Shown here in pieces: positions 13,911-55,500 of a DNA stretch of 58,164 nt. The translations under genes were made by a program, and so were the position numbers. The stretch is taken from positions 1 through 58,164 of the forward strand of contig JAUCBJ010005217.1 in the NCBI GenBank assembly GCA_032718475.1. Reading direction: 5' to 3'. Position 1 is the stretch's first letter; every line of letters starts with the position of its first letter. Under the pieces are notes generated by a model. That model had not been told where the DNA came from, ran no database searches, and saw nothing but the letters and a program-made list of their open reading frames with translations. This stretch comes from Nemertoderma westbladi (taxonomy: Eukaryota; Animalia; Xenacoelomorpha).

Positions 13911-14084
13911 CTCTCCCCAACACCTCCAGAGCTCGCCATCACCCACACAACTCCCCAACACCTCCAGAGCTCGCCATCACCCACACAACTCCCCAACACC
14001 TCCAGAGCTCGCGATCACCCACACAACTCCCCAACACCTCCAGAGCTCGCAATCACCCACACAACTCCCCAACACCTCCAGAGC
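13911..14084. repeat. 38-bp satellite block
   Basis: Same unit as 11610-12024. Confidence 0.95.
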
Positions 14085-16793: not shown

Positions 16794-17174
16794 CTCTCCC
16801 CAACACCTCCAGAGCTCGCCATCACCCACACAACTCCCCAACACCTCCAGAGCTCGCGATCACCCACACAACTCCCCAACACCTCCAGAGCTCGCCATCA
16901 CCCACACAACTCCCCAACACCTCCAGAGCTCGCGATCACCCACACAACTCCCCAACACCTCCAGAGCTCGCAATCACCCACACAACTCTCCCCAACACCT
17001 CCAGAGCTCGCCATCACCCACACAACTCCCCAACACCTTCAGAGTTCGCGATCACCCACACAACTCCCCAACACCTCCAGAGCTCGCGATCACCCACACA
17101 ACTCCCCAACACCTCCAGAGCTCGCAATCACCCACACAACTCTCCCCAACACCTCCAGAGCTCGCCATCACCCA
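16794..17174. repeat. 38-bp satellite block
   Basis: Same unit. Confidence 0.95.
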
Positions 17175-24400: not shown

Positions 24401-25088
24401 ACTTCCAGATCTCGCGATCACCCACACAACTCCCCAACACCTCCAGATCTCGCGATCACCCACACAACTCCCCAACACCTCCAGAGCTCGCCATCACCCA
24501 CACAACTCTCCCCAACACCTTCAGAGTTCGCGATCACCCACACAACTCCCCCACACCTCCAGAGCTCGCCATCATCCACACTACTCCCCAACACTTCCAG
24601 ATCTCGCGATCACCCACACAACTCCCCAACACCTCCAGATCTCGCGATCACCCACACAACTCCCCAACACCTCCAGAGCTCGCCATCACCCACACAACTC
24701 TCCCCAACACCTCCAGAGTTCGCGATCACCCACACAACTCCCCAACACCTCCAGAGTTCGCGATCACTCATACAACTCCACAACACCTCCAGAGTTCGCT
24801 ATCACCCACACATCTCCCCAATACCTCCAGAGCTCGGGATCTCCCATTCAACTCCCCAACACCTCCAGAGCTCGCGATCACCCACACAACTCCCCGACAC
24901 CTCCAGAGCTCGCCATCACCCACATAACTCCCCAACACCTCCAGAGCTCGCGATCACCCACAGAACTCCCCGACACCTCCAGAGCTCGCGATCACCCACA
25001 GAACTCCCCGACACCTCCAGAGTTCGCGATCACCCACACAACTCCCCAACACCTCCAGAACTCGCGATCACCCACACAACCCCCCAAT
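21475..25088. repeat. Main 38-bp satellite array (~95 units)
   Basis: Tandem units with recurring variants (GCC/GCA/GCG, +CT), degenerating at the 3' edge. Confidence 0.97.
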
Positions 25089-26571: not shown

Positions 26572-29094
26572 CTAGTACAAGTTGCCCTATAGAATTTTAT
26601 TATTTTGTTATTTTTATAGTGCAGCTCCATATTAACAATTTGCAGCAATTTTGGTGTCATTGGATGGCTAGAAGGTGCTATTTTTGATTCCAAGTAAATT
26701 TAAATATATCTTTCCATTATTATAGCGTATGGAGAGATAGTACCTGTATGTTCCATCAAATAGGTTGTGATTTCGCATTTCGTTGCCTAATTTGGCAACC
26801 TAATTTGGCACTGGCACTTAAGGTAGTCGTAATTATGCCAGTAACTCTACCATTCTTTCCTTATTTGACACGAATGACTTAGATGTGGAAGCTTTCCGAT
26901 CAGCAGCGCGTCTACTAATTCGTGCTAATAAATGTCCTAATCAAACAATACAAAAAGTTCTCAAAAGCAATCTGCTGCTGAACGATGTAACCCGCAATTA
27001 AAAGGTTCTACTTTTTGGAAATGTCTCAGAGAATTCCCGTGCCCCACATTAAAATCCATGGTTTATTACGAATATTCGAAAAATAAAATTCTAGAAAGTA
27101 TAACTAATGGACCAGCATCGACAAATGATATGAATAACACGGATTTTATTAAAGCCACATTCGAACTGTCAGGATTATCATTTGGTCGGAAGCACGAGAA
27201 GATCATGGAATATTTTGGAATCGACTCAAGTGACGGAACGGTTTAACACGTTAAGCGCGGATATCTAACCTCTATTGGTTGAACCAGTTTTAGTTTTTAT
27301 TACCTAACTATAATTTAAGCAAAGATGAACTTTTATTAGCGCGCCGGCCGATTTGTAATCGTTACTTTAAACTTGTAAAGCTAATTTCTTAATATGTTCC
27401 TATGTTTACTGACACATTATCTTATATCAACTTGATTGATTAAATATATTGAAATTTAATTGAATTTCTAGAACATAGTTGGACCTTCACACAATATTAT
27501 GGTAGCTATCAAATATTTTTATGGTAGCTAGTATTTTATGAAAATATTGCAAATAATAATTGTAAAATCAAATATTTGGTATTTTTATTTTCTCTAAACT
27601 AACAAAAATATGAATGTTTATTATTTATATGTGTTTTCCGTTATTTCTAATTCACAAGGCATTAATTGTTCTAGAACACAATTTAGCTAACTTTTGTTTT
27701 TTAAAATGGCTGTTTCTAGAGACTACATACGTAGTTATCCTACCGAACTGAACATAGAGGCCTGCATCACCCTGCAGAGATGCTACCTGAAGCTTGCTTT
27801 ACATTGCTATTGTTAAGTATATTAGTTAAAATTGTTTGCGCATTATCTTTCTGAGTAATATATAGGCCAACACTGCGCAGTATGTAATATACCTGATTTT
27901 AAAAAACGGATTCAGTGATATTTAAAGATATATAATAAGTAATTCTGATGTTTGTGCATGCGATGTTGATAATGAAAATGGTAAAGTCAATTTTATCAAC
28001 AGTTCATAAATAATTCAATATAAATCTGACATAATATTGTCACAAGCGTATCTAATACTTACGGGATTGAATGCAAAATGCAAATGCAATATGCATAGTC
28101 AGTCACAACAAACCTCAAAGTCCTTATGTACAAGTTATACAAACAGGCCTTACAAAAATGGACAGTAGTATTTTTGCATGAATGATAATGAATAATTCTG
28201 ATGTTTGAGCTGTTTGAGCTGTTTGTTGTATATTGAATCTTGGAAGCCTCTATTTATGAATAATTCAATATGAATCTGACAAATACTCTCAAAGGCGCAA
28301 AGGCGTATCATTATCTTATACAGTAGGTTGGAATTTTAAAATAATATGTATACAGAAACAATGAGTATAGTCAGCCGAAAACAAATAGCATAATGCCAGT
28401 GAGATAGATATATTTTGATGTTTTGAAGATTACCGCTACTTCTGCCTACAATCGAGACGTTACAATAATGACTAACTTGCATTTTTCATAAAAGTTGATA
28501 AACAAATATTAGTATTGTTATTGTGGTGTGAGGAACATATAAAGCCATGATGATCTTCCCTTTGTTACTATTGTTCACACTTGTGCCTGCCTATATATTT
28601 TGTTGTTGGTAAATAAAACCACGATGTTTGGCCTTCGCGCAGCACAAGAGCCATGTAATAAAATGTACTAAGGCTATTTAAGTTAAGTATGATATTTTTA
28701 GTTTTACAATACTCGCCTCTTTCATTAGCCTCGTTGCGTTCTTCCTGTTTTGCTCAAATTTATTTTCTTAAACGCGGACTGACGACCTTTATAACTATGC
28801 AAAGTCTCGAAACTGTGTGAGTAATTAGTAATTTATGGCAGATGGATACTCGTATCTACTGCCAACTCGTTCCGTTCATCCTGTACAACCTGGTCACCAA
28901 ATTCATACCCTAGAACATTCCATATATGTCATTTTATCCACTACTAATAATTGGATAAAATGGCACATCGTCCAATATTCTAAAAGGAACTACTATAGAA
29001 TATATTGTTAACCATGTACAACACTTTTGGATTATTTTATTATATTATTATTATTATTTATATTTGCTGCTTATATATGTATATATATGCTTTA

Positions 29095-29258
29095 TACTAC
29101 TACTATACTACTACTGCTACCTACTACTACTAGGATCGGCATGCTGCATTGCAGCTGCATTTTTAAGAATGCTGTGCTGGCTTGTCGACTAAATTGCGCC
29201 GCCATAACTCCCTATCACCCATGACATTTGCTAGATCATCCGCATCTTCAAGGCCAAT
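29095..29258 (-). mobile_element. 3' end of RTE family B LINE, cut off by the LTR insertion
   Basis: (CTA)n tail then reverse complement of 11430-11550; continues at 39875. Confidence 0.9.
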
Positions 29259-30506
29259 TGTACGCGCTTTTGAAGACCTTTAGCAGTTTAACCTGCCAAA
29301 TTTTATATGTCTTTTGGTTTATAAATCGACTCTAGAAAATGACAATATTTAATACCAATAAACACAACATTAGCAGAAGCCAGCCTAGTGCGCGTCCATT
29401 CACCCGCTGGATAATCCCGGGAGACTGGATTCTGAGGGCTTAGATTATTATTGCAGTGAAGCTTACGGTATTGTATTATTCGATTGATCGTTAATAAATA
29501 ATTTCTGACTAATATTATTCACTTTCGGGAAATATTAACAGTTCCTTTAGGACGTGGCGCTCTATCTAAGTAAACAGAGATATGACTTATACTAATCACA
29601 ACGGTAAGTCGGTAAGGCTTATGATTCACGTATGAGGCGCATTCTTTAGGAAATGCTTAGTTATCAATCACAATCATGCACACTACCGGTAACACACAAT
29701 ACTGCCCACTAATTTGCCGACCGTCAATGATTTTTATCATATATAAAGAGAACAGCAACGGACCAATGTAGTGCTTATCAAATAGCATTAAATTCACTAC
29801 AAACCACAACAATATAAGTCGCAATCGCTATATATATAACCCGCCTCTCTAACCTGTAGTGTATCAAGAAAATTGGGAAATTTGGGTTCTTTATAAATGT
29901 TCTCCAAATAATATTCAATCCACTGATATAAGATATGACAACAGTAAAACATTAAGACGGTAGGTTAAGATATGATATGCACTGATATGGACCGATATGT
30001 GAGTTGTTATGAACCGATAACAGTCATACGTTCTATAATCTTAAGCCTACTAATGTTTCTTTCTAGAGCCGTTGTTTCTGGCTTAGACAGCAATAACAAC
30101 AAAGTATCAGTAAAAAACTGTAAGACTGAACAATCCCAGTATGATCGGCTCAAAGCTCCACATCGACAGAGAGAATCGCTCTGATTGGCTGAAGCCAAAC
30201 AAAGAACCATGCGTCCAATGGCTGTTTCCATTTAAGCAACCAGCTGCTAGATGTCGTAATCTGAATCATCACGGCTAAGCTGTGTAAAAGTATTTGCCGT
30301 ATTGCGGGTTTTTTGCCTTACCATGTCCGCTAAAACACGTATATAGCAGAATGACTTTTATGTCCGTTAAAACACCTGTAACGGTACCTTGCGGGCGAGG
30401 GGAATATATATACAGTTAGAGAACCTTTTTTAGAGTATTCCAGCGCCTGGGGGGAAACTGGATTGCGAAGCAAAGGGGCCAGTTATATCCCACAGAAGCT
30501 TTTACA
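29259..30506 (-). repeat. 3' LTR (1,248 bp)
   Basis: Direct repeat of 38626-39869; only a 4-bp indel and 2 substitutions noticed. Confidence 0.97.
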
Positions 30507-30584
30507 CCGCTCCCAGAAAATGGGATTTGAGTCTATAAAATATACAAAATCACAGTTTCTAATATACGTAAATACTCTAAGCAG

Positions 30585-31817
30585 TTAGTCTTTCTTGCGC
30601 GGACGGCGTTTACGCAGTTTTTTAAAGCTAGCCAGAGTCCTTTTCTCTTTGGGGCGAGCCACTTTACAAGGAGGGCTATAACTCCTGGGTGAAGGGTGCA
30701 ATATGATTGCATCAGAGGGTGTAGGATTATGGTCGGTGTATCCGTCAGTCGAAGTACCGGGTTGATTGACATCAACGTCAGGTGAGAGGGGTCTAACGGC
30801 TTTGAGAGCTCGTTTCAAGACAGCCGCTCTTACGGGTCCTTTACGAGTGGTCTGAACGAGGGCCGTGGGTGGACCATAGGCAGTTAGAAACTTCCGGGGT
30901 TTAATGGTCCTTTCCAACTCGCGTTCGCGGGCTCGGTATTCGTAAGGCCGTCGATATACTTCCTGTAACTCGGGGTGTGAGTCAACAAACAAGTCTCCAT
31001 AGTCTGGATCCTGACGGATATAATTGATTAAGTTATAGGAATGAAGGTCGCTAGGATTAACACTCCTGAGAAATTTGCGTACGAATTTGGTTGAAATACA
31101 TTCTCCGACGCGCTTCAGTAGCTCGTAACTTGATATGCGTGATTTCTGTTCAACCGAAGCGAATAGATAAGGATGGAACGCATAAACTCCTTCGTAAGCG
31201 CGTCCGGGATAATAGCGATGGCGCGAATCACAATGTAAATCAACGTTCGCTTCCCAAGCTCTGATGTAACGCAGTGTGGTCATTTCATCTACGCTTTCCA
31301 AATCGTGATTAAAAGGGCAGTCGAAACTAGCATGTCCCTTTAGTTGACAATGGTGACATTGAGTCATAAATTGAGGGCAAACCGCAAAGATATGCAGGTT
31401 ATTGAGTCTGCAATATGCGCAATAAATTTCCATAGTCGGTTGTTCTTTGAAATAGGAACAGCGGACGTTGGTGTCCATGGGCGTATCGTGGTCTCTCGAT
31501 GCGCATAACCGACAACGTTGCCTAGAAACATAGTTGGCATGTCGATAATCGTACGCAGTGAGACACTGTGGACCTTGATACCATTCTAGGATGTAATCGT
31601 TGTCGCTGTTCCGGGCGCGATAGGCTGAATCTCCTCAGATTCTAGGCATATTGGTTCGTCTTCCCAGTCTGTTACGAATAGAATTTTCGTGATCTATTCT
31701 CGGTTTATCGTTCCGACTCCGCTGGGTATGATATTTAAATAGAACCATTTCCCTTTCGGTGTCTACATCGTCCGTATCATGTAAATCGATAGGATGGCCG
31801 GTAGCTAGGAAGTCCAA
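30585..31817 (-). CDS. Extra ORF of the BEL element: three zinc-knuckle-like motifs and basic C-terminus; one internal TGA at 31635-31637
   Basis: ORFs 31635-31817 and 30585-31478 are in one frame joined by 52 stop-free codons; CRLCASRDH-x9-C, CAYCRLNNLHIFAVC, CHHCQLKGHASFDC; ends KKLRKRRPRKKD. Confidence 0.7.
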
Positions 31818-32495
31818 ATATTAAATTAATATTTAGGATGGGCACCGATTTATTCCAGAGCTAATCTGGGGACGTTAACCACTGATTCTAGAATTTTGTC
31901 TTTCAAGTATATCGGTGGGTGCCGCGATATCTTAATCGACTAGAATTACAGATGGTCAAAAGTTTAACAGATTTATTTGCGTTTTACGCTACTGTTATAT
32001 GGACATCACGCTACTATATGTATTATTTAATATAAGGTAGAAGAGCAATATCGCACGAAGCAATGTCAGTGTGAAGAGGCAAGTCGTTTCCAAGGTCTAC
32101 CCAGAGCTTGGTTTAGCCGAGACACGAGGATCTGAACTTTGCATTCCTAATACTCTGCCTACCAATAATACTTGAATATAGTAGGAGCTTTATTGTACTT
32201 TAATAAGTACGGACATTTCATCTTACTGTAGTCACGTATTTATAATATGATACGGACAGTAAGGAAAGAGAAAAATAATTATTTCTCGCCGTCGCACTAA
32301 ATATATATTATAAGTAATTACATACGTAATAAACACTAATATATTGCACTAATCTACTAAATAATCACTAAAATAACATTCTACTAAATAAAATTAAAGA
32401 AAACGATTATAATAAAATTACATAATAATACATACATAAATATAAAATAAAAACAAATATAAAATGATATAGTCACACGCCCACTCCACATGCTA

Positions 32496-35400
32496 TCACG
32501 TTATGGAGTCCCTAGATATTTGTCGGATTAGGGAGGTGGTCGTGGGAAGAGTATCTTGCCTTTCATAGTTTCCGGACAGTTTTCGGTCTCTTTCCAGTAA
32601 ACATAAACGACTAGCTGGGCGATTGAGTTGTTGTGTTAGTTTCTCCGCTCCCTTGGCCTGTCTACTCTCCGCCGTGGTAAGATGAGGAGGCCATTCTTCT
32701 TCTTCTTTACTTAAGAAGTCGGATCCACCTAACCAGCCTGGAGTATCTATCAGTTCTTGAGGAGTTGCTCCTCTGGAAGCGATGTCGGCTGGATTAATCG
32801 TCCCAAGACAATGTCTCCATTGATCTACATTGGAGTTAATATCGTCATTATCTGAGGAGTATGGTGTTCCCTCAGTTGGGTCGTCCACCTCACTGCTCTC
32901 CACTTCCCATTCCTTTACTTGGTATACCTGTTGTTGAGGTAATCTCTCTTTGAGAGTTCTACGGGAAGGGCCAGTGAAGTACCAACCTACTCTAGTTCTT
33001 ACCGCATAAGTTTGTAATGGCTGCGGTTGAGCAGGCCGTTTCTCCAATGTCTCGAGCGCCTCATGCGCGTTTTGGCCGATGAGGATTTGCACTCCAGGAT
33101 AATCGGTTTGGAATCGAGGTATCTCAAGATGTTGGATGCACTCGTCCTCGTCCCAGTTATAAGGTTCTGCTTGAGTAGTAGCAAAGTTCTTTATAGCCAC
33201 CATTTTTACTGACCTTATACCTTGTGTTCCTAACTTATCCTGGGGGGTAGACAACACACCTACATAGTAATCTGCCGTTAGGGTAGATTTCCAAACCTGC
33301 ATAATTCCTGACATATTCAATTTAGTCCGGAACTTGGGTTGTCCAGCAAAGATATCTTCGGCTAGTTCTTGATCGATGAATGTTCCTGTGCTGCCGGAGT
33401 CAAGGAGGGCGTTCACTATGTAGCTTTTGTTAAGACCGTGAACTCTTACTTGAACTACAGGAAATTCTCTGATTCCTACGTTGGAAGCTGGAGCTTTCCA
33501 AGATGGTTGTTTGGCGAAAGTAGTTGGGGGAAACTCATCGTTGATGTCCTTTTCGTAAGTAAGTGCTCGATACACTGCGGTATTGATTAGATAACAGGAT
33601 TCGTTGGCGTCGGAGAATTCGTCAGTATAGAATCCTTCCATCTCAGATTCTTGATCAGTGTCGTTTACATCACTGAATTGGACATGTAGTTCGGGCTCAC
33701 TTACCTGACTCTGGTTGTTTCGTTCGAACTCACTGTGTAACAAGATGTGATGTTTCGCGCCACACTTTGCACACTTTATATCGGAGTAACAGGTTCGCCG
33801 TTGGTGTCCTGATCTGAGGCAATTATAGCATAACCGCTTATTCCACAGGACTGTACGTCTGTCTACAAGGGATTTCTTTAGAAATTCAGCACACGCACTC
33901 AAACGGTGGGGCCCGTCGCACAGCGCACATTTTGGTTTGATGTTACTCACCTTAACTTGGTTAACGTTCTGCACTCTCGTTCTTTCTTCGGGCTTTCTTC
34001 CGTGAATTCTCTTAGGAGACGTAGGAGGAGTTGTTGTTACCTGTTCTCTCCTGTCACTGGTTCGAGACTTGTATTTACTTACGTCTTTATAGGTCTTGTT
34101 GTCATAGTAAGATTTTGCTGTGTCTTTCCCGCTGTCCTCTTCTTGAGAAGCTTGGCTTTCGCCGTCGTCAGTATAACACACTGGTATTATCCTTCTCCTA
34201 GAAACGGGTTTCTCACTTACCTTATTTTCCGATGTTTTCTCTCTGGACTGCCTTATGAGTTGTAATTTTACTTCACTATCTAAGAAGGACATGAGATCAG
34301 CCATGGTAGGACTTCGTCGTTGTTGTTCATTCATGTACAACACTTTCTTGTCCCAGCGCGTACATACTCCACCCTTTGGTAAAGTAGAGACTACGGCTCC
34401 AATGACCATGGAACTCTGATATTCATGCGACTTACCTAACCAGTCCAGTTGTCTACAGATCTCTTGAATTTCATCGGAAAACTCTATAATCCCGCTACTA
34501 AGGAAGTGTCGGGGGGCTACTAATTTTGCATACAAATACTTAGCTATGTTATCCTTGTTACCATACCTGATGTTTAATGTATCCCAAACTTGTCTTAATC
34601 CATCTGGATGTCCAATAAACTTTAACGCCATTAACTTGGGAGGTCCTTCCAAGCACTTGATGAGGAATCTAAGTTTCTCTCCGTTAGATAGTACAGAGTT
34701 CTGTATGCTATCTTTGTAATATTCGTTGAAAGGTAACCATTTCATCTCATCTCCATTGAATTTGACGATCTCTCCCACTTTGACCGCTTGGCGGGCTTCT
34801 GTTCTAGCCATCTGACGCGTAAAGTTTTCTTGGGCCATCGTGTTATTTAATATCGAATTATCGGTATATAAAGTTCTCGGATCATTATCAGGTCTATAGG
34901 GAATATCATTAATAACAGGTCTATAATCACCCTTAATAGGGTTTGCTATAGGAGTTTCAACTTCACTAGCAGTATAGATGCGTGTAGGCTCCACACCTTG
35001 CGCATGTAATACTTCAGACCTAACAGGTTGACACAATGTTACAGGGGGTATTGGTATGCTCTTTTGTATATTGACTAATTTGTCGCATTCTAGCGCGATA
35101 CTTTGCTGCACTTCTTGCAACTCTGCTCTACCTTCCCTCACTGTTCCCTTAAGTTGGTGGACAGTCTCCTGCATCTGTCCTAGCAGGAGATTCATCCCCC
35201 GCCGTCCCTCTTCCACCCACTCAACCGCCGAAGCGGGAGTCGCCAACATAGTAGCGGGCTGACGCGGGACGACGGGAGACAAATCTTTGATTTCTCTCTC
35301 TGCTATCCGGACAGGGATATTCTCTTGGACTGTTCTACCGGGTACAGGCAGTGTAGTACTATGTAAAGGGAATTTAGAGTTAAGCTCTGGAAGTACAGGG

Positions 35401-36659
35401 GTCTCTAACACAGAAGTGACTTTGGGAACGACAGGCCTAATTATCTCAGGCTCATCAACTATTGTAGAGAGTCTTTGGACCTTAATACTTTGGGCTGTAG
35501 GTTCTATACTACTCAAGTCTGTGCTAGCTAGCTGTCTTCTAACAGCTGGGGGCAAATCAGGCAATTTGCGACGGTAAGATGTTTTTCTACGCCTACTTAG
35601 ATGAGATCTATTTCCTCCGCCTTCAGGATCGGTAGTCTCGCCTTCCTCCGAGGATGTGTATCCCTGGCGCTTGGGAGTAGATTTTCTCATCATCTGCATT
35701 TGATTAGCAGTAAACTGTTTATTTATACTGTCTTGCGTCTCTTGCAGATTTTCCAACTCCAGTTGGATAGTCTCCTCAGAAGCTCTTCGTTCTGCTTCTG
35801 CCACTGCTGCTTTTCTTTCTGCTTCTGCTTCTGCCGCCTTTCTTTCGGCTTCTGCTTCTGCCGACTTTCTTTCGGCTTCTGCTTCTGCCGCCGCTGCTGC
35901 TGCCACCTTTCTTTTCTCTATCCGTTCTTTCTTTACTTGTTCTTCTCGGACTCTAATGAGGCAGAGTTTTTCATCACATTCAGCTTGGTTTGCAGCTAAC
36001 ATTTCGGCATCGATTGAGTCCAACACAAGCTTGGTTCCTTCACTATTAGGGGAAAGTCCAGACAGCCGTCTCCTCAACTCTTCGTCTCCTAGGAATCGCT
36101 GATAGTCGGACAAATAAATGTCGATAGCGTCTCTAGTTCGCGGCTTCTCTGCTGATGTTAATTCGCTTTCCACTTCGCTTTCCACCTCGCTTTCCACTTC
36201 GCTTTCCACCTCACTTTCCACTTCGCTTTCCACCTCACTTTCCACTTGAGAAGAAGTGGCGTCGGTTGATTCTTCATAGGTTGGCCGCTCATCATAAAAC
36301 GTATCCGCCATCTTCGCTCCGCGTTCGGGCGTCCGCTCAACAGTATCCGAACTACTGGAGCTATCGGGCCGCTGAGAACTAGGTTCTTGGCTAGGAGGTT
36401 GCTGCTGTTTTATAGCTTCTTCTTGATCCCGCTTGACTTGGGCCCGAGTGCCTATGGCAGACCAACGGCGCTTCACTAACTTCGCAAATTGCAAAATCTT
36501 TTCTACCAACCTAGGTTCTGACACAACCACTGCAGGGGTTGCCCTTCTTACAGTATGAGGGGTTTCAGACCTCGGTCTGGGATTCTCTACACTTTGATCT
36601 GAGAAACAGGCTGTTGTTTCTAGGAGACTATCTGACAGAGTTTGCCTTGTGTCAGCCAT
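32496..36659 (-). CDS. gag: BEL/Pao Gag-protease polyprotein with only remnants of RNase H and integrase
   Basis: DUF1759-like KFNGDEMKW...EKLRFLIKCLEG; CALCDGPHRLSAC, CYNCLRSGHQRRTC, CAKCGAKHHILLH; protease ALLDSGS, ILIGQN, RTRVGW; then WRHCLGTINPADIASRG and LNRPASRLCLLE. Confidence 0.92.
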   Translation of the reverse strand: MADTRQTLSDSLLETTACFSDQSVENPRPRSETPHTVRRATPAVVVSEPRLVEKILQFAKLVKRRWSAIGTRAQVKRDQEEAIKQQQPPSQEPSSQRPDSSSSSDTVERTPERGAKMADTFYDERPTYEESTDATSSQVESEVESEVESEVESEVESEVESEVESELTSAEKPRTRDAIDIYLSDYQRFLGDEELRRRLSGLSPNSEGTKLVLDSIDAEMLAANQAECDEKLCLIRVREEQVKKERIEKRKVAAAAAAEAEAERKSAEAEAERKAAEAEAERKAAVAEAERRASEETIQLELENLQETQDSINKQFTANQMQMMRKSTPKRQGYTSSEEGETTDPEGGGNRSHLSRRRKTSYRRKLPDLPPAVRRQLASTDLSSIEPTAQSIKVQRLSTIVDEPEIIRPVVPKVTSVLETPVLPELNSKFPLHSTTLPVPGRTVQENIPVRIAEREIKDLSPVVPRQPATMLATPASAVEWVEEGRRGMNLLLGQMQETVHQLKGTVREGRAELQEVQQSIALECDKLVNIQKSIPIPPVTLCQPVRSEVLHAQGVEPTRIYTASEVETPIANPIKGDYRPVINDIPYRPDNDPRTLYTDNSILNNTMAQENFTRQMARTEARQAVKVGEIVKFNGDEMKWLPFNEYYKDSIQNSVLSNGEKLRFLIKCLEGPPKLMALKFIGHPDGLRQVWDTLNIRYGNKDNIAKYLYAKLVAPRHFLSSGIIEFSDEIQEICRQLDWLGKSHEYQSSMVIGAVVSTLPKGGVCTRWDKKVLYMNEQQRRSPTMADLMSFLDSEVKLQLIRQSREKTSENKVSEKPVSRRRIIPVCYTDDGESQASQEEDSGKDTAKSYYDNKTYKDVSKYKSRTSDRREQVTTTPPTSPKRIHGRKPEERTRVQNVNQVKVSNIKPKCALCDGPHRLSACAEFLKKSLVDRRTVLWNKRLCYNCLRSGHQRRTCYSDIKCAKCGAKHHILLHSEFERNNQSQVSEPELHVQFSDVNDTDQESEMEGFYTDEFSDANESCYLINTAVYRALTYEKDINDEFPPTTFAKQPSWKAPASNVGIREFPVVQVRVHGLNKSYIVNALLDSGSTGTFIDQELAEDIFAGQPKFRTKLNMSGIMQVWKSTLTADYYVGVLSTPQDKLGTQGIRSVKMVAIKNFATTQAEPYNWDEDECIQHLEIPRFQTDYPGVQILIGQNAHEALETLEKRPAQPQPLQTYAVRTRVGWYFTGPSRRTLKERLPQQQVYQVKEWEVESSEVDDPTEGTPYSSDNDDINSNVDQWRHCLGTINPADIASRGATPQELIDTPGWLGGSDFLSKEEEEWPPHLTTAESRQAKGAEKLTQQLNRPASRLCLLERDRKLSGNYERQDTLPTTTSLIRQISRDSIT

Positions 36660-38433
36660 GTTTGATTGTACAGTCGAATGCCTACTGCTATATTACAGTT
36701 AAAGCAAGTCTAGTAATTCAGTATCACTGTTAGCCTAATAATTAATTACCGATACTGCTACTCAGTGTAGCGTGATATATATATAATATATTAGAATACC
36801 GGTATGCTTATAATATATATATAAGTATTATTACAGACTAGATTTGTCACAGAGTACCGGTATATAATTTTAGCACAAATATATATAAATATATAATAGG
36901 CCTATCGTGAATACCGGTATACAGCTGACACTTATAGTATATATAAGTATAATTATTACTAGAATTAATTACAGAATACCGGTATGATTTCAGCTCAAAT
37001 TTATAGAAATAAATATAATAAGCCTATGGTAAATACCGGTATGTCAATTATTTTAGAATAATTGAATTTCTGAATATTTTAGGGTTACTTGGTTACTTTA
37101 ACTTACTTTATTACCGTTATTTAAGCAGCAGTCCAACTGATATTGAGACCTAGTTGTTGTATGGCAGGCCTACTATTTATAAATCGTTTGAGTTGATTTA
37201 TAATATTTATATACCCGTTTAAAAGGGTTTTGTCAATATTTGAAATAAATGTTATTATTTCTGGGGGAGTCACTACACAGAAGCTGTGCGCTCTCAGTGA
37301 AGTGCTACCTATGGGACACTAAAACAGATAATTCTAATTTACCTAAGTTACTTAATACTACAAATTACTTACGATACGGGTGAGATTAAATCTCTAGTTA
37401 AACACAACAAAAATATTACGTACGAATTTTTAGGGTAATTTTACAGGAAGTCTACAAACCAGCCTAACAAAGGGTTAGAATTCTGGTTATTACAATGGAC
37501 AGGGTACTACGGTATTTGAAAATAATAAGTAGTAGTAAATACACTGCGTTGTCCAGATAGGAAAATACCACCGCCTGACGACCTATAACCGTATCGCTAT
37601 AGGTACTACGTTATGTATCACGGAGTGTTCCTACCCAGAAGTTAATAGAGCTAACGAATGTGCCTATCAACCACTTTACAACACAAATATACGGCCTACA
37701 CACTAATTACTTCGGAAAGCACTGTACACTAAACCCTAAATTAGGTACAAGTACCGGTATAACAAATAATCAGTAGTTAAATATACTTGAACAGTTAAAA
37801 GAACCACGGCATCTGCTGGAGTGACCAGGGCACAAAGTCACCAGTCTTGTCCTACGCCAAGCAGCCCGTGTAGTACCGGGGTTAATTTAACTATAACGGT
37901 ATGTGTAACAAACACAATTACTGTAGGAATAAACTTGGGGGCATGAATGTTGCGAATAATCGCATAAACTCTGAATAATAAATATTACGCTACCCGTACA
38001 GAATACTCAAACAAATACAAACCAAAACGCTGGCAGACTACCACCAAGCCTAAATAAACTACCGTACGTGTAGATTCTGAAATAGTTAGTTAGTATGCGT
38101 TCTAACACGGTAGTACGACTTATTCTTTAAGAGGGGATTGACCTTACTGCTATGGCTGCCCCAACTTACTAACGGAGCTTTATCAGACAAACTCTACACA
38201 CGCAGCAATCTCTTCAGACCTAATAATAGCTAGACAACAATCCAGCCTACAAAATATCTGAGTAATCTGAGCAGACTTACACGTCTTCAGCTCAATATTA
38301 ACTTACTAGGAAATAAAACTGACAGAAAGAAGTAAACTATACAAAGGAATGAGGGGTGATCAATCCCTATTCCCCTGGCAGCCTACAATATACTATAGAT
38401 CACAATCGAAATAATACTAATGTACTTATACTG

Positions 38434-38560
38434 GAAGTACCGGTTAGGACAGTTGGGCCTACAGACCTACAGAAGTACCGGTTCTGACAGTTGGGCCTAC
38501 TGACCTACAGAAGTACCGGTTCTGGCAGTTGGGCCTACTGACCTACAGAAGTACCGGTTC
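38434..38560. repeat. 38-bp tandem repeat (~3.3 units) in the LTR-element leader
   Basis: GAAGTACCGGTTCTGACAGTTGGGCCTACTGACCTACA repeated. Confidence 0.9.
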
Positions 38561-38614
38561 AGGTTTACCGGTTGACCGGTACTTTCAACTTTATTGCTTA
38601 CTGCAATAAAGTCA

Positions 38615-38625
38615 ATGACTGTTAT
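38615..38625 (-). promoter_or_regulatory. PBS-position 11-mer ATAACAGTCAT complementary to an LTR-internal site (candidate self-priming PBS)
   Basis: Abuts the 5' LTR end; no TGG; perfect complement of minus-strand ATGACTGTTAT at 39390-39380 (and 30027-30017). Confidence 0.65.
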
Positions 38626-39869
38626 TGTACGCGCTTTTGAAGACCTTTAGCAGTTTAACCTGCCAAATTTTATATGTCTTTTGGTTTATAAATCGACTCT
38701 AGAAAATGACAATATTTAATACCAATAAACACAACATTAGCAGAAGCCAGCCTAGTGCGCGTCCATTCACCCGCTGGATAATCCCGGGAGACTGGATTCT
38801 GAGGGCTTAGATTATTATTGCAGTGAAGCTTACGGTATTGTATTATTCGATTGATCGTTAATAAATAATTTCTGACTAATATTATTCACTTTCGGGAAAT
38901 ATTAACAGTTCCTTTAGGACGTGGCGCTCTATCTAAGTAAACAGAGATATGACTTATACTAATCACAACGGTAAGTCGGTAAGGCTTATGATTCACGTAT
39001 GAGGCGCATTCTTTAGGAAATGCTTAGTTATCAATCACAATCATGCACACTACCGGTAACACACAATACTGCCCACTAATTTGCCGACCGTCAATGATTT
39101 TTATCATATATAAAGAGAACAGCAACGGACCAATGTAGTGCTTATCAAATAGCATTAAATTCACTACAAACCACAACAATATAAGTCGCAATCGCTATAT
39201 ATATAACCCGCCTCTCTAACCTGTAGTGTATCAAGAAAATTGGGAAATTTGGGTTCTTTATAAATGTTCTCCAAATAATATTCAATCCACTGATATAAGA
39301 TATGACAACAGTAAAACATTAAGACGGTTAAGATATGATATGCACTGATATGGACCGATATGTGAGTTGTTATGAACCGATAACAGTCATACGCTCTATA
39401 ATCTTAAGCCTACTAATGTTTCTTTCTAGAGCCGTTGTTTCTGGCTTAGACAGCAATAACAACAAAGTATCAGTAAAAAACTGTAAGACTGAACAATCCC
39501 AGTATGATCGGCTCAAAGCTCCACATTGACAGAGAGAATCGCTCTGATTGGCTGAAGCCAAACAAAGAACCATGCGTCCAATGGCTGTTTCCATTTAAGC
39601 AACCAGCTGCTAGATGTCGTAATCTGAATCATCACGGCTAAGCTGTGTAAAAGTATTTGCCGTATTGCGGGTTTTTTGCCTTACCATGTCCGCTAAAACA
39701 CGTATATAGCAGAATGACTTTTATGTCCGTTAAAACACCTGTAACGGTACCTTGCGGGCGAGGGGAATATATATACAGTTAGAGAACCTTTTTTAGAGTA
39801 TTCCAGCGCCTGGGGGGAAACTGGATTGCGAAGCAAAGGGGCCAGTTATATCCCACAGAAGCTTTTACA
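38626..39869 (-). repeat. 5' LTR (1,244 bp)
   Basis: Direct repeat of 29259-30506; minus strand TGTAAAAGC...GCGCGTACA. Confidence 0.97.
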
Positions 39870-40461
39870 CCAATGCCCTTTAAGGTGCGTCTCAAGAAAG
39901 TCACGGGATGTTGTGCTGCATGCTTATTAACTCCATGAGGCTGCCAAAGTACAAGATTATGCACTGGCTGGTGCTCACGGCGAAAGCAATGTCCGTCAAA
40001 GCGGAGGCGGCTCCGTTAAAGTGTCAAACTGGGGGGGGGGGGGGGGGGGGGGCTGATATTGGAGATGTGTTCATTTCCATAACACAATGAACCCGGCGTA
40101 GCATTCTTGTGTACGTGTCTTCCAGAGATTCGGTGTCCTCAGCAGTTAGATGTGGGCATTGTACTTGACACAGTGAACCAGGCGTCGCATTCTTGTGAAT
40201 GTGCCATCCAAGATATTTATTATTGATAGTAACAATGTGTTGGCAAGCTGTGTTTTTCGAGGTGTTTGTTATTATACATTTATAGGAAGGGATCTAGGGG
40301 TCTTAACCTCGAATGATAAGTTTATTTTACCGAAAATAACTTATCTTTTATTGGCGCATTTGTAGGACTTATCCCATCACATGCGTACTTTTAAACCGGG
40401 TAGTGTATAACTTTAGGAATCGCGTAACATTTATTGAAATTATTATCTCATATCTCTCCAA

Positions 40462-40504
40462 ACCATGTACGCGTTTCGACCTTACTGGGTCTCATCAGCG
40501 TGGT
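40462..40504 (-). ncRNA. Minimal type I hammerhead ribozyme motif
   Basis: ACCACG-CTGATGA-GACC-CAGTAA-GGTC-GAAA-CGCG-TA-CATGGT: intact core, 4-bp stem II, palindromic ACGCGT helix III, GUA triplet, stem I 5 of 6 bp. Confidence 0.85.
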
Positions 40505-40567
40505 GTCGGATTCGAACCTGGGACCTCGAGGTGGAAGCCGAGACTACAACCACTAGGCCACAGGTTC
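40505..40567 (-). other. tRNA-derived Pol III promoter head (Gly-TCC-like loop)
   Basis: A-box TGGCCTAGTGG, anticodon-like arm CTCGG-CTTCCAC-CTCGAG, B-box GGTTCGAATCC; acceptor stem does not pair. Confidence 0.8.
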
Positions 40568-42863
40568 TTGAAATATGGAGTATTAATTTCAAAGCCAGTT
40601 GCCATTTTTATACGCATTTTTGTACGCATGTGATGGGATTTGTCTTACAATTGCGCCAATAAAAGATAAGTTATTTTCAGTAAAATAAACTTATCATTCG
40701 AGGTTAAGACACCTAGATCCCTTCCCACAAATCCAAAGATTTGGTGTCCTCAGCAGTTAGAGCCCAGCATGGACTCCCATAGAGGAGTTCTGGAACTACT
40801 GCTGCTCTAAGTAATCGGTCCTTAAGTTTCCGATTAATTCTCTGTGTCTTCCAAATCCTGGAAAGCCCATTCAAGGCTGCCCATGCCTTTCCCTTACGTA
40901 TTCGAAGGTTCTCACCTGACTTCCGGATCCATGATCCCAGGTATCAGAAGTCGTCCACATGCTCAAGCATACCATCTTTTGAGCTTATGCTCATCCGATC
41001 AGAGACTTGCTGAGGACTTTCAAAGTTAACTGTCAAAATTTTGGTATTTTGGAGTTAATAAAAAGACCAACACTAGAAGCAGCCTGTTCTAATGAGCTGG
41101 GGAGCCGTTGGGCTCCCTTTAGTGATTCTGAGAGTGCTCCTAAGTCATCAGACTTCCAGATTTCCTCGACTTCTGGAGCCAGTAGGTGGAGTTACCATCA
41201 CCCCATCATCATTATGCTGATCTAAGGACATGCGTAGAACATAGTCAACCACAATTATGAACAAGAAGAATGGTGCAAGTGTGTCTCCCTGAAGGACGCC
41301 CCATAATACTTCAAATGGTTCTGTGTCACCGTCAACAGTAGACACAAATGTTGTCGAAACATCGTATACTGATCTGATTGCTGCAATAATTTCATCAGGA
41401 ATCCCATATAATGAAAGTATGCTGAACATACTTGACCAAGAGACTGAATCAAAGGCCTTGAAGGAATCAATAAAGATAACAGCCAGATGCCTGTCTTTCT
41501 TTTTTGATAACTCTTCAATTATCCTTCTAAGGGCCAAAATGTGCTCCATGGTCCCACGACCTTTACGGAACCCATTCTGATTTCCACGGAGCAGTCTCTC
41601 AATGGGATCCCTGATGCGATTTAATATAATTATATTGTATAGCTTTGCAGCAATCGAGATCTATGAGATTCCCCGAAAAGAACCATAGAGTTTTAGGTTG
41701 CCCTTCTTGGGAACTGGCACCAACTTATTTGTTTTCATTTCTTGTGGGACTCATGTTGTTCGGTACATGTCTAATATGATGGGATAGATGAGCTTTAAAC
41801 ACTCAGGTATTTTAAAGACCTCAGGGGGACATCATCTACTCCACTGGCACGATTGGTCTTAATGCTCTTTGCAGCAGCCTTCACTTCTGCAAATGAGATA
41901 TCGCCAATGGGAATATCTGGGAGTACAGACTCAGACACTTTTACTTCTATAATGTTATCAGGCAATACCGTGTCCTTATTGAGGAGCATTTCAACGTGGG
42001 CCTTCCAACCATTGAGGTGATCGGCCGGTGATTCTGCCTTAACCTTGGTGGTTGGTTGGCTTTTCCACCCAGTAAGCAAGTTGATCGATTTCCATGCCTG
42101 GGATGATTGCCTGCTGTCGTCAGCATCATTATGCTTTATACTTTAATATACAGTAAATGTAATACATTATGATCTTCTTATCATATCATTCATTTTAAAT
42201 ATAGGCCTATTACAGTAGTTGTTGCGTACCGGCAGTTATTGTTCAATATCACGCTTGCTTGGTGGCATTCGGGGTTGTGCTGAAGGAAGCACCAATCATA
42301 AGACGTGCCGCGGAGTCACTTACCGACAGCAACTGTCGGTGGTAATCCGATAAGTTCACTTGTAATTTAATTAAAATAGCCCAGGAAGAAACCTTTCCCG
42401 TCCCTCCGGGGTATCAGTTTCAAATAGTCGCACTTATCTGTCAGTCGATTAAGGGAATAACTCGCTTTTAATGAGATGCAACTAGCCTAATGTTTTTGAT
42501 ACGCTGTAGAATTCACACAAAAGTCACGCTTCTAAACTCAATGCCAAATCTCCTACATCGCAGACAAGAGGACTTGGTTCTTCTGATTATTTAATGAAGA
42601 CTCTACGTGATTTACGTCATTATTAAGAAAATCATTTTTTTTACACAGGAAGGTGACAAAGTATGCTTGTGTCCTTTTCATTCATTGGCTGGCATCTGGC
42701 ATTTATTTGTGAACTTCAGAGGACCAAATCCCACAAAGTGATGGATAGTATAAATGATATTGATTTGCTGTGCCCTATATGTTAATACGATGCGATTGAT
42801 ACGATTCCATCTATCTCTATATTGTAGGCTCTATACAGTATCATCCAGTTGGCCTTTGTTTAC

Positions 42864-49556: not shown

Positions 49557-52500
49557 AGATCGGTTATACTGGCCACTGCTACAGATCGGTTCTACTGGCC
49601 ACTGCTACAGATCGGTTCTACTGGCCACTACCACAGATCGGTTCTACTGGCCACTGCTACAGATCGGTTCTACTGGCCACTACCACAGATCGGTTCTACT
49701 GGCCACTGCCACAGATCGGTTCTACTGGCCACTGCCACAGATCGGTTCTACTGGCCACTGCTACAGATCGGTTATACTGGCCACTGCTACAGATCGGTTC
49801 TACTGGCCACTGCTACAGATCGGTTCTACTGGCCACTGCTACAGATCGGTTCTACTGGCCACTACTACAGATCGGTTCTACTGGCCACTGCTACAGATCG
49901 GTTCTACTGGCCACTACCACAGATCGGTTCTACTGGCCACTGCTACAGATCGGTTCTACTGGCCACTACCACAGATCGGTTCTACTGGCCACTGCCACAG
50001 ATCGGTTCTACTGGCCACTGCCACAGATCGGTTCTACTGGCCACTGCTACAGATCGGTTATACTGGCCACTGCTACAGATCGGTTCTACTGGCCACTGCT
50101 ACAGATCGGTTCTACTGGCCACTGCTACAGATCGGTTCTACTGGCCACTACCACAGATCGGTTCTACTGGCCACTGCTACAGATCGGTTCTACTGGCCAC
50201 TGCCACAGATCGCTTCTACTGGCCAGGCCACTGTCAAAGATCGGTTCTACTGGCCACTGCCACAGATCGGTTCTACTGGCCACTGCTACAGATCGGTTTT
50301 ACTGGCCACTACCACAGATCGGTTCTACTGGCCACTGCCCCAGATCGGTTCTACCGGCCACTACCACAGATCGGTTCTACTGGCCACTGCTACAGATCGG
50401 TTCTACTGGCCACTGCCACAGATCGGTTCTACTGGCCACTGCCACAGATCGGTTCTACTGGCCACTGCTACAGATCGGTTCTACTGGCCACTGCTACAGA
50501 TCGGTTCTACTGGCCACTGCTACAGATCGGTTCTACTGGCCACTGCCACAGATCGGTTCTACCGGCCACTACCACAGATCGGTTCTGCCGGCCACTACCA
50601 CAGATCGGTTCTACTGGCCACTGCTACAGATCGGTTCTACTGGCCACTGCCACAGATCTGTTCTACTGGCCACTACCACAGATCGGTTCTACTGGCCACT
50701 GCCACAGATCGGTTCTACTGGCCACTACCACAGATCGGTTCTACTTGCCACTGCTACAGATCGGTTCTACTGGCCACTACCACAGATCGGTTCTACTGGC
50801 CACTGCCACAGATCGGTTATACTGGCCACTGCTACAGATCGGTTCTACTTGCCACTGCCACAGATCGCTTCTACTGGCCAGGCCACTGTCAAAGATCGGT
50901 TCTACTGGCCACTGCCACAGATCGGTTCTACTGGCCACTGCTACAGATCGGTTCTACTGGCCACTACCACAGATCGGTTCTACTGGCCACTGCCACAGAT
51001 CGGTTCTACTGGCCACTGCCACAGATCGGTTCTACTGGCCACTGCTACAGATCGGTTATACTGGCCACTGCTACAGATCGGTTCTACAGGCCACTGCTAC
51101 AGATCGGTTCTACTGGCCACTACCACAGATCGGTTCTACTGGCCACTGCTACAGATCGGTTATACTGGCCACTACCACAGATCGGTTATACTGGCCACTG
51201 CTACAGATCGGTTCTACTGGCCACTGCCACAGATCGGTTCTACTGGCCACTGCTACTGATCGGTTATACTGGCCACTGCTACAGATCGGTTCTACTGGCC
51301 ACTGCTACAGATCGGTTCTACTGGCCACTACCACAGATCGGTTCTACTGGCCACTGCTACAGATCGGTTATACTGGCCACTACCACAGATCGGTTGTACT
51401 GGCCACTGCTACAGATCGGTTCTACTGGCCACTGCCACAGATCGCTTCTACTGGCCAGGCCACTGTCAAAGATCGGTTCTACTGGCCACTGCCACAGATC
51501 GGTTCTACTGGCCACTGCCACAGATCGGTTCTACCGGCCACTACCACAGATCGGTTCTACCGGCCATTACCACAGATTGGTTCTACTGGCCACTGCCACA
51601 GATCGGTTCTACCGGCCACTACCACAGATCGGTTCTACCGGCCATTACCACAGATTGGTTCTACTGGCCACTGCCACAGATCGGTTCTACTGGACTTTAC
51701 CACAGAACGGTTCTACTGGCCACTGCCACAGATCGCTTCCACTGGCTAGGCCACTGTCAAAGATCGGTTCTACTGGCCACTGCCACATATCGGTTATACT
51801 GGCCACTGCTACAGATCGGTTCTACTGGCCACTACCACAGATCGGTTCTACTGGCCACTGCTACAGATCGGTTATACTGGCCACTACCACAGATCGGTTA
51901 TACTGGCCACTACCACACGTCGGTTCCACTGGCCACTGCCACAGATCGGTACTACTGGCCACTACCACAGATCGGTTCTACTGGCCACTGCTACAGATCG
52001 GTTCTACTGGCCACTACCACAGTTCGGTTCTACTGGCCACTGCCACAGATCGGTTCTACTGGCCACTGCCACAGATCGGTTCTACTGGCCACTGCTACAG
52101 ATCGGTTATACTGGCCACTGCTACAGATCGGTTCTACTGGCCACTGCTACAGATCGGTTCTACTGGCCACTACCACAGATCGGTTCTAATGGCCACTGCT
52201 ACAGATCGGTTATACTGGCCACTACCACAGATCGGTTATACTGGCCACTGCTACAGATCGGTTCTACTGGCCGCTGCCACAGATCGCTTCTACTGGCCAG
52301 GCCACTGTCAAAGATCGGTTCTACTAGCCACTGCCACAGATCGGTTCTACTGGCCACTGCCACAGATCGGTTCTACCGGCCACTACCACAGATCGGTTCT
52401 ACTGGCCACTGCCACAGATCGGTTCTACTGGCCACTGCCACAGATCGGTTCTACTGGCCACTGCTACAGATCGGTTCTACTGGCCACTACCACAGATCGG

Positions 52501-55500
52501 TTCTACTGGCCACTGCTACAGATCGGTTCTACTGGCCACTACCACAGATCGGTTCTACTGGCCACTGCCACAGATCGGTTCTACTGGCCACTGCCACAGA
52601 TCGGTTCTACTGGCCACTGCTACAGATCGGTTATACTGGCCACTGCTACAGATCGGTTCTACTGGCCACTGCTACAGATCGGTTCTACTGGCCACTGCTA
52701 CAGATCGGTTCTACTGGCCACTACCACAGATCGGTTCTACTGGCCACTGCTACAGATCGGCTATACTGGCCACTACCACAGATCGGTTATACTGGGCACT
52801 GCTACAGATCGGTTCTACTGGCCACTGCCACAGATCGCTTCTACTGGCCAGGCCACTGTCAAAGATCGGTTCTACTGGCCACTGCCACAGATCGGTTCTA
52901 CTGGCCACTGCTACAGATCGGTTTTACTGGCCACTACCACAGATCGGTTCTACTGGCCACTGCCCCAGATCGGTTCTACCGGCCACTACCACAGATCGGT
53001 TCTACTGGCCACTGCTACAGATCGGTTCTACTGGCCACTGCCACAGATCGGTTCTACTGGCCACTGCCACAGATCGGTTCTACTGGCCACTGCTACAGAT
53101 CGGTTCTACTGGCCACTGCTACAGATCGGTTCTACTGGCCACTGCTACAGATCGGTTCTACTGGCCACTGCCACAGATCGGTTCTACCGGCCACTACCAC
53201 AGATCGGTTCTACCGGCCACTACCACAGATCGGTTCTACTGGCCACTGCTACAGATCGGTTCTACTGGCCACTGCCACAGATCTGTTCTACTGGCCACTA
53301 CCACAGATCGGTTCTACTGGCCACTGCTACAGATCGGTTCTACTGGCCACTACCACAGATCGGTTCTACTGGCCACTGCCACAGATCGGTTCTACTGGCC
53401 ACTGCCACAGATCGGTTCTACTGGCCACTGCTACAGATCGGTTATACTGGCCACTGCTACAGATCGGTTCTACTGGCCACTGCTACAGATCGGTTCTACT
53501 GGCCACTGCTACAGATCGGTTCTACTTGCCACTACCACAGATCGGTTCTACTGGCCACTGCCACAGATCGGTTATACTGGCCACTGCTACAGATCGGTTC
53601 TACTGGCCACTGCCACAGATCGCTTCTACTGGCCAGGCCACTGTCAAAGATCGGTTCTACTGGCCACTGCCACAGATCGGTTCTACTGGCCACTGCTACA
53701 GATCGGTTCTACTGGCCACTGCTACAGATCGGTTCTACTGGCCACTGCTACAGATCGGTTCTACTGGCCACTGCCACAGATCGGTTCTACTGGCCACTAC
53801 CACAGATCGGTTCTACTTGCCACTGCTACAGATCGGTTCTACTGGCCACTACCACAGATCGGTTCTACTGGCCACTGCCACAGATCGGTTATACTGGCCA
53901 CTGCTACAGATCGGTTCTACTGGCCACTGCCACAGATAGCTTCTACTGGCCAGGCCACTGTCAATGATCGGTTCTACTGGCCACTGCCACAGATCGGTTC
54001 TACTGGCCACTGCTACAGATCGGTTCTACTGGCCACTACCACAGATCGGTTCTACTGGCCACTGTCACAGATCGGTTCTACTGGCCACTGCCACAGATCG
54101 GTTCTACTGGCCACTGCTACAGATCGGTTATACTGGCCACTGCTACAGATCGGTTCTACTGGCCACTGCTACAGATCGGTTCTACTGGCCACTACCACAG
54201 ATCGGTTCTACTGGCCACTGCTACAGATCGGTTATACTGGCCACTACCACAGATCGGTTATACTGGCCACTGCTACAGATCGGTTCTACTGGCCACTGCC
54301 ACAGATCGGTTCTACTGGCCACTGCTACTGATCGGTTATACTGGCCACTGCTACAGATCGGTTCTACTGGCCACTGCTACAGATCGGTTCTACTGGCCAC
54401 TACCACAGATCGGTTCTACTGGCCACTGCTACAGATCGGTTATACTGGCCACTACCACAGATCGGTTGTACTGGCCACTGCTACAGATCGGTTCTACTGG
54501 CCACTGCCACAGATCGCTTCTACTGGCCAGGCCACTGTCAAAGATCGGTTCTACTGGCCACTGCCACAGATCGGTTCTACTGGCCACTGCCACAGATCGG
54601 TTCTACCGGCCACTACCACAGATCGGTTCTACCGGCCATTACCACAGATTGGTTCTACTGGCCACTGCCACAGATCGGTTCTACCGGCCACTACCACAGA
54701 TCGGTTCTACCGGCCATTACCACAGATTGGTTCTACTGGCCACTGCCACAGATCGGTTCTACTGGACTTTACCACAGAACGGTTCTACTGGCCACTGCCA
54801 CAGATCGCTTCCACTGGCTAGGCCACTGTCAAAGATCGGTTCTACTGGCCACTGCCACATATCGGTTATACTGGCCACTGCTACAGATCGGTTCTACTGG
54901 CCACTACCACAGATCGGTTCTACTGGCCACTGCTACAGATCGGTTATTCTGGCCACTACCACAGATCGGTTATACTGGCCACTGCTACAGATCGGTTTTA
55001 CTGGCCACTGCCACAGATCGGTTCTACTGGCCACTGCTACTGATCGGTTATACTGGCCACTGCTACAGATCGGTTCTACTGGCCACTGCTACAGATCGGT
55101 TCTACTGGCCACTACCACAGATCGGTTCTACTGGCCACTGCTACAGATCGGTTATACTGGCCACTACCACAGATCCGTTGTACTGGCCACTGCTACAGAT
55201 CGGTTCTACTGGCCACTGCCACAGATCGCTTCTACTGGCCAGGCCACTGTCAAAGATCGGTTCTACTGGCCACTGCCACAGATCGGTTCTACTGGCCACT
55301 GCCACAGATCGGTTCTACCGGCCACTACCACAGATCGGTTCTACCGGCCATTACCACAGATTGGTTCTACTGGCCACTGCCACAGATCGGTTCTACCGGC
55401 CACTACCACAGATCGGTTCTACCGGCCATTACCACAGATTGGTTCTACTGGCCACTGCCACAGATCGGTTCTACTGGACTTTACCACAGAACGGTTCTAC

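Follow-up and report, generated by a model that had tools for sequence, protein, structure and literature searches.

How does a BEL/Pao retrotransposon without a tRNA-type primer-binding site (PBS) begin reverse transcription? The question is raised by an element on the minus strand of the window (the whole stretch of 58,164 nt analysed here), in which the first nucleotides after the 5' long terminal repeat (LTR) are complementary to a site within that LTR. According to the ICTV, members of the Belpaoviridae are primed by host tRNA-Arg or tRNA-Gly on an 18-nt PBS, in agreement with the first-pass annotation of this locus, which had called BEL/Pao elements generally tRNA-primed; the replication of the group is described as poorly understood (PMC8742986). 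Self-priming, by which a retrotransposon uses a piece of its own RNA, has been shown for Tf1 and is predicted for the Tf1/sushi elements, Tcn1 and the TAR lineage of copia (PMC6317226, PMC4600332, accessible portions). The primer of Tf1 consists of the first 11 nt of its RNA, and a 'pretzel' of three duplexes is required (PMC10085805, partial text). A term search of the main texts of three BEL/Pao surveys (PMC554778, PMC3118150 and PMC6238403) found no mention of a primer site, and no account of BEL/Pao self-priming was found in the titles and abstract openings of the literature searched, the scope of which excluded subscription journals, Repbase Reports and GyDB.

A shortened BEL/Pao element and its surroundings

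Self-comparison of the window delimited an element of 10.6 kb with LTRs that are 99.5% alike (Table 1). The insertion must be young, since the two LTRs differ by just two substitutions and one 4-nt indel; the TG...CA ends of the LTRs and the target-site duplication are those of BEL/Pao elements. The identity proposed in the first-pass annotation is backed by the DUF1759 Gag, the protease and the polyprotein relatives of ORF1. A BEL-type Gag and protease were recognised in ORF1 by a profile match and a pairwise match, the best full-length relatives of ORF1 are BEL/Pao polyproteins, and all five matches carry PF03564, PF05380 and PF18701. Aligned with the closest of these full-length polyproteins, ORF1 passes in a single frame from the protease to the last RNase H motif and on to the C-terminal tail; in this pairwise alignment RT, most of RNase H and the integrase are deleted with the frame kept. 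The remnants retain the order protease, RNase H end and C-terminal tail, and both RT and integrase are absent from the copy. Judged by these sequence features, it is a non-autonomous BEL/Pao element.

The two large deletions leave Gag, protease, the RNase H end motif and the C-terminal tail of ORF1 in one open frame, and their in-frame character suggests selection for continued production of Gag and protease. For ORF2, situated between the cut-down pol and the 3' LTR, searches returned neither a Pfam family nor a match among the loci fetched for comparison (see below), homologues of similar or greater length were likewise not found, and its predicted fold had a pLDDT of 37.

Table 1. Features of the element and of its insertion site, in window positions
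Feature	Position	Strand	Remarks
Target-site duplication, 5' side	39870..39874	-	ATTGG, matches 3' side
5' LTR	39869-38626	-	1244 nt, TGT...ACA
Putative intron	39425..39684	-	GTAAGG donor at 39684; AG at 39442-39441 or 39427-39426
Block common to diverged family copies	39379..39424	-	primer site with the 34 nt before it and one base beyond
Candidate self-primer	39380..39390	-	LTR nt 480-490; exact complement of 38625-38615
Alternative LTR partner for 38609-38600	38815..38824	-	10 nt; possible second duplex, not significant
ATTAAA	38715..38720	-	sole poly(A)-signal-like hexamer in the LTR, of two types searched
Predicted primer-binding position	38615..38625	-	11 nt, ATAACAGTCAT; adjoins the LTR end; no TGG
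Hairpin	38588..38612	-	10 bp (13 bp with G-U), directly after the predicted primer-binding position
38-nt tandem repeat	38434..38560	-	3.3 copies, leader
ORF1	32496..36692	-	1398 codons, stop to stop
ORF1, Gag DUF1759	34760-34374	-	PF03564, E 7.5e-12, above cut-off
ORF1, three Cys/His knuckles	33929-33729	-	
ORF1, aspartic protease	33458-32967	-	
ORF1, RNase H end motif	32837-32691	-	sole RNase H remnant
ORF1, C-terminal tail	32627-32556	-	
ORF2	30585..31634	-	349 codons; Cys/His-rich front half, basic tail
Purine-rich tract, likely PPT	30507..30514	-	short, just before the 3' LTR
3' LTR	30506-29259	-	1248 nt, TGT...ACA; second copy of the primer site at 30027-30017
Target-site duplication, 3' side	29254..29258	-	ATTGG, matches 5' side

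The element was inserted in a copy of a repeat (29121-29256 and 39870-40035) that is also found at 11272-11560, 14156-14444 and 1868-2112; the copy holding the element lies in an RT-coding region (RVT_1), which we take to be part of a CR1/L2-type non-LTR element. One 38-nt minisatellite, with up to 94 copies, occurs in five arrays (11610-12024, 13913-14084, 14494-14908, 16796-17174 and 21477-25087), all of them inside RT-coding non-LTR sequence whose long frames are kept open. The window further contains a 26-nt satellite of approximately 328 copies (49557-58163), which reaches the window end, and long inverted repeats at 7669-8400 and 40278-40732 (fold-back or MITE-like).

The 11-nt site and its complement in the LTR

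The first-pass annotation had described 11 nt without TGG directly after the 5' LTR, their exact complement 480 nt into the LTR, a match of exactly 11 nt that adjoins the LTR end, a chance expectation between 3e-4 and under 1e-3, and a 10-bp hairpin behind the site, and each of these observations was reproduced. The match cannot be extended on either side, one side being the LTR boundary itself. Dinucleotide shuffles of the LTR contained the 11-mer in 9 of 20,000 cases (4.5e-4), or in 31 of 20,000 (approx. 1.6e-3) when six start offsets were allowed, and among 8,039 other internal positions none reached 11 nt against the real LTR. The hairpin formed in every fold tried, with pair probabilities of 0.90-1.0. 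The element thus has no TGG in the first nucleotides after the LTR and no 18-nt PBS of the ICTV type for tRNA-Arg or tRNA-Gly; what adjoins its 5' LTR is an LTR-complementary PBS of about 11 nt, as in the Tf1/sushi type. No tRNA was detected in the window, with two doubtful calls among the fetched loci, and an Rfam search over 28500-40500 gave one match, taken as chance. A primer spliced together within this element was also considered and rejected, the best match being 7 nt.

Seven public runs hold the stretch or parts of it, and in one of them (X1) 12,196 contigs fall on 1.6 kb, which points to an abundant family, the depth being no measure of copy number. On the element strand, position 38617 has T instead of C in most of the contig depth (54.6k/74.8k in X1, 37.7k/37.7k in X3 and 9.3/12.9 in X5) and is the only variant within the site among the 40 of 122 variants listed. 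At the partner base, 39388, no substitution of at least 2% is listed in four runs (three samples, with X4 barely covering 39388). Run X5, only tentatively taken for RNA, has no coverage over 39268-39429 and so carries no information on the start site or on splicing. The pair 38617/39388 would be G-C in this copy and G-U in most copies, and one contig of X2 has A at 39388, which would give an A-U pair, a fully compensated state that rests on that single contig end. All family variants seen (G-C, G-U and A-U) keep the helix. No substitution of at least 2% is listed anywhere in 39371-39470, and the invariance of the primer site is accordingly nothing special among close copies. Diverged copies have one block in common: 7 of the 32 contig pieces listed extend from 39379 to 39424, flanked by unrelated letters, and the edge of this conserved block lies one base past the primer site at 39380. 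In many contigs of the family an additional pyrimidine-rich stretch, with AG at its end, directly precedes 39424. A pattern scan for the LTR end with the site gave no match in metagenome contigs, and the single match in viral contigs had nothing else in common with the window and was discarded as chance; among the fetched loci no DNA-level relative of the element was found.

It could be argued that this single defective copy, in which other large deletions did occur, once had an ordinary TGG site and lost it. We consider this scarcely credible, for contigs of three runs that differ by 6-10 other letters span the LTR end together with the 11-nt site, the family shows variants of the site and not its loss, and an insertion with near-identical LTRs and an intact target duplication would not have arisen from a copy lacking a primer site.

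BEL/Pao relatives with TGG and with self-matching sites

An alignment of 40 full-length relatives was used as the query for further loci, of which 118 were fetched: 80 from metagenome contigs (the 80 highest-ranking of 577 with a single protein as query, and hence biased towards that protein's branch), one from a viral contig (the viral-contig searches yielded 0 and 1 loci of BEL type) and 37 from genome bins, where they most likely represent host DNA. The genome-bin loci include BEL/Pao elements of the animal type in bacterial bins (L084, L085, L087, L094-L096 and L101-L118), many of them with an LTR pair and some on contigs of more than 1 Mb. Host DNA in the bins is the likely source; for L096, which lies in a record titled as a Wolbachia chromosome, misassembly or a genuine transfer is an alternative. 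In 23 of the 118 loci an LTR pair was recognised that ends within the contig; two of these loci were dropped with unreadable LTR ends, leaving 21 for comparison; four LTR boundaries among the relatives were moved by 1-3 nt by eye.

Twelve of these 21 loci have TGG at 0-7 nt from the LTR and a best own-LTR complement of 4-6 nt; they are not independent, as six come from one bin and two pairs are near-copies. A common site, TGGTCC...GAGCCGG, at 0-7 nt from the LTR end, was seen in the TGG-type loci L031, L060, L102-L104, L107, L109, L110, L115, L116 and L118, and presumably corresponds to tRNA-Tyr, not to the tRNA-Arg or tRNA-Gly of the ICTV description. The remaining nine loci lack TGG, so that the ICTV description of the tRNA site does not cover the whole group. 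In a test for own-LTR matches that allowed one GT-AG intron (with GTR as the only donor requirement), seven of the nine showed an own-LTR match of 11-15 nt (with an empirical p of 0.002-0.006 for each), compared with none of the 12 TGG loci, with or without an intron allowed. The match is unbroken in L047 and L004 and spans an intron in L013, L063, L085, L095 and L101, with GTAAGT (three times), GTAAGG and GTAGCG as donors. L097 and L017 scored 8 and 4, respectively, and reach 11 (L097, by eye) and 10 (L017) if the LTR end is shifted to a CA.

The letters of the self-matching sites differ from locus to locus and always follow the LTR of the same locus. A comparison of the PBS with its LTR site across family members and relatives, proposed in the first-pass annotation as a check, therefore turned out favourably, the two sites changing in step. 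This also bears on the suggestion that priming is by a host RNA annealed at 38625-38615, e.g. half of a tRNA cleaved in its anticodon arm. In support of it we count what we take to be a resemblance of the primer 11-mer to the tRNA-Asn anticodon loop, in 7-8 places. One tRNA, however, cannot follow sites that change letters with each LTR, and the exact complement inside the LTR would be left unexplained. Half-tRNA priming is known in plant copia lineages, though among the plant elements surveyed it is used in copia only (PMC6317226, accessible portion), and we regard a host-RNA primer as quite improbable here.

Among 42 loci without a readable LTR end, eight were labelled self-matching by eye (six spliced and two unbroken), five were of the TGG type and 29 were left unlabelled; the same scan also yields chance matches, including one at a TGG locus. 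With relaxed settings, 24 loci gave four more spliced matches, of 10 nt, which were not used as labels. Eleven loci (L013, L063, L085, L095, L101, L011, L038, L058, L062, L066 and L091) show pairing of 11-15 nt only with the exon-exon joint, and their introns are of the GT-AG type, 76-511 nt long and located inside the LTR (5' or 3' LTRs). At L101:7190-7894 both LTRs begin with TAT and end with TAAA rather than TG...CA, with a 5-bp duplication.

In a tree based on 1,000 Pol columns one branch separates 16 self-matching from 16 TGG loci (support 100, and 97 in a second tree), where shuffled labels on the same tree give a mean of approximately 11 changes; the 11 spliced loci sit on one BEL/Pao branch apart from the TGG-type loci. 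The element itself appears as sister to the self-matching branch, outside the starred set, at a support of 51 and with only 539-541 alignable columns and a branch of 1.7-1.9. The self-matching relatives may be a parallel case and not this element's own lineage.

This uncertain placement is one of several points in favour of another explanation, namely that the 11-nt site is a structural or dimer-forming signal and its match to the LTR incidental. With the common T at 38617 the 11-mer becomes near-palindromic, which makes a complement easier to find; the strong hairpin after the site is stable in all folds, the R-U5 is unusually long, and fungal GalEa copia elements offer a precedent of a conserved hairpin site replacing the PBS, albeit with no LTR complement found (PMC5445492, partial text). 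A match would nevertheless arise by chance at only 5e-4 to 1.6e-3, the block conserved in diverged copies stops one base past it, and the non-TGG relatives match their own LTRs with sites that are not palindromic. We therefore think a purely structural role unlikely, and favour pairing of the site with the element's own RNA.

Start of the RNA, the proposed priming and known systems

In an RNA starting at 39390 the 11-bp helix reached a probability of up to 0.88 and was present in both the MFE and the centroid folds, compared with 0.10 or less for six longer 5' ends; forcing the helix costs 0.4 kcal/mol from 39390 versus 9-14 kcal/mol from upstream starts, though little weight can be put on folds of 850 nt, and the model leaves out chaperoning by Gag. 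As noted in the first-pass annotation, no TATA is found about 30 nt before 39390 and TATA-like words lie downstream at 39262 and 39205-39201; further ones occur upstream at 39775, 39773 and 39708. TATAAA as such is present in the LTR only at 39262, 38690 and 38674, all downstream of the primer site.

The relatives point to a start further upstream. In the 11 spliced cases of at least 11 nt, no more than 3-9 nt of the primer come from the upstream exon. L063, L085 and L022 have a canonical TATA 47-52 nt ahead of the primer site, and L047 and L013 have one 122-133 nt ahead of it, as opposed to the roughly 30 nt that a primer at the start site would suggest; most other relatives examined have none. 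AATAAA or ATTAAA follows the site in seven of the nine LTRs listed (this element included, and in one case only 6 nt from the LTR end); this, with the upstream TATA of relatives, places the site in R. The distance from primer site to LTR end is 754 nt here versus 44-226 nt in 13 relatives, for which no reading considered here accounts. In our element TATATA at 39775, the donor at 39684 and an AG near 39441 or 39426 could make a short first exon, by which the primer would come to lie approximately 95-110 nt inside the RNA. On balance we lean slightly towards an RNA start upstream of 39390 rather than at 39390. The earlier proposal of a self-priming BEL lineage with its transcription start at 39390 is thus retained as to the LTR-complementary site in place of a tRNA PBS and not as to the start, for which folding speaks and against which the relatives speak.

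A further rival reading places the start downstream of 39390, at the TATA-like words 39262 or 39205, with a primer drawn from the 3' LTR copy at 30027-30017 (of the same or a partner RNA) or with the pairing used for 5'-3' circularisation. All TATAAA words of the LTR do lie on that side of the site, and a start near 39230-39175 would shorten R-U5 to a length nearer that of the relatives. We hold this to be very improbable: where the relatives have a TATA nearby it is upstream of the site, with AATAAA or ATTAAA downstream as given above; neither hexamer precedes the site in this LTR, and cutting the 3' copy would sever the template if no second RNA were involved.

Our preferred reading, which is drawn from sequence comparison, is that the element probably uses part of its own RNA as the primer for minus-strand DNA synthesis, with RT from an autonomous partner. 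The RNA would fold back so that 39390-39380 anneals to 38625-38615, and a cut just 3' of 39380 would free the 3' end of the primer, by analogy with the RNase H cut in Tf1 (PMC7175516, PMC5341516, partial texts). RT and RNase H would act in trans, supplied by the partner because this copy has lost both, and R-U5 would then be copied. With lesser weight, the unbroken 11-mer may correspond to the splice-built primer of the relatives with its intron lost. Should R start behind the primer, the 3' copy would serve to rebuild the upstream LTR; if that copy were spliced, its intron would disappear and the site would become continuous, which would account for the unbroken sites of this element, L047 and L004.

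More tentatively, and with slightly less than even confidence, we propose that a large branch of BEL/Pao self-primes with an internal piece of RNA, usually assembled by splicing across an LTR intron, this element being an intron-less form with the spliced primer fixed in its DNA; the branch would be distinct from Tf1 in that the primer is not needed at the capped end. If the whole branch self-primes, the description of the BEL/Pao family is wrong for that branch, and self-priming would have arisen in a third LTR superfamily. Such elements would, we infer, escape control by tRNA fragments, and a splice-built primer in the relatives would tie priming to host splicing. With this element, an abundant and young family without the intron becomes available for direct mapping of both the start site and the primer.

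Compared with the Belpaoviridae as described (PMC8742986), the element has the same LTR-gag-pro-pol layout, DUF1759 Gag, three Cys/His knuckles and a short PPT, its size and LTR length being at the upper end of the range given; it differs in having no 18-nt PBS for tRNA-Arg or tRNA-Gly and in the deletion of RT and integrase. Tf1 and Tf2 of Schizosaccharomyces pombe, Tj1 and the Tf1/sushi and Tcn1 chromoviruses belong to Ty3/gypsy, whereas Gag and protease are of the BEL/Pao type here; lacking a Ty3/gypsy chromovirus polyprotein, the element is not a member of Tf1/sushi, and our claim is solely that it works like one. Moreover, the Tf1 primer is located at the RNA 5' end, while relatives of this element often have an intron-split primer site. 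The flanking duplexes of the Tf1 pretzel are not supported in this element or in the relatives tested: for the leader duplex with 38824-38815, 0 of 28 versus 13 of 100 null stretches were as good, the LTR-end duplex was no better than its null (16/28), and only 1 of 15 relatives did better than its own null.

The fungal GalEa copia elements likewise have no tRNA PBS, and in them a hairpin comes after a short palindrome at the end of the LTR; a search for an LTR complement found none in them, whereas an exact one is present here (PMC5445492, partial text). The plant TAR lineage (Houba, Osr-1) is closest in the kind of evidence: self-priming was predicted there from an LTR complement of at least 10 nt at 0-5 nt after the LTR, the same test as was applied here, although those are copia elements and of plants. 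As far as the accessible portion of that study goes (PMC6317226), the TAR lineage indicates that self-priming arose more than once.
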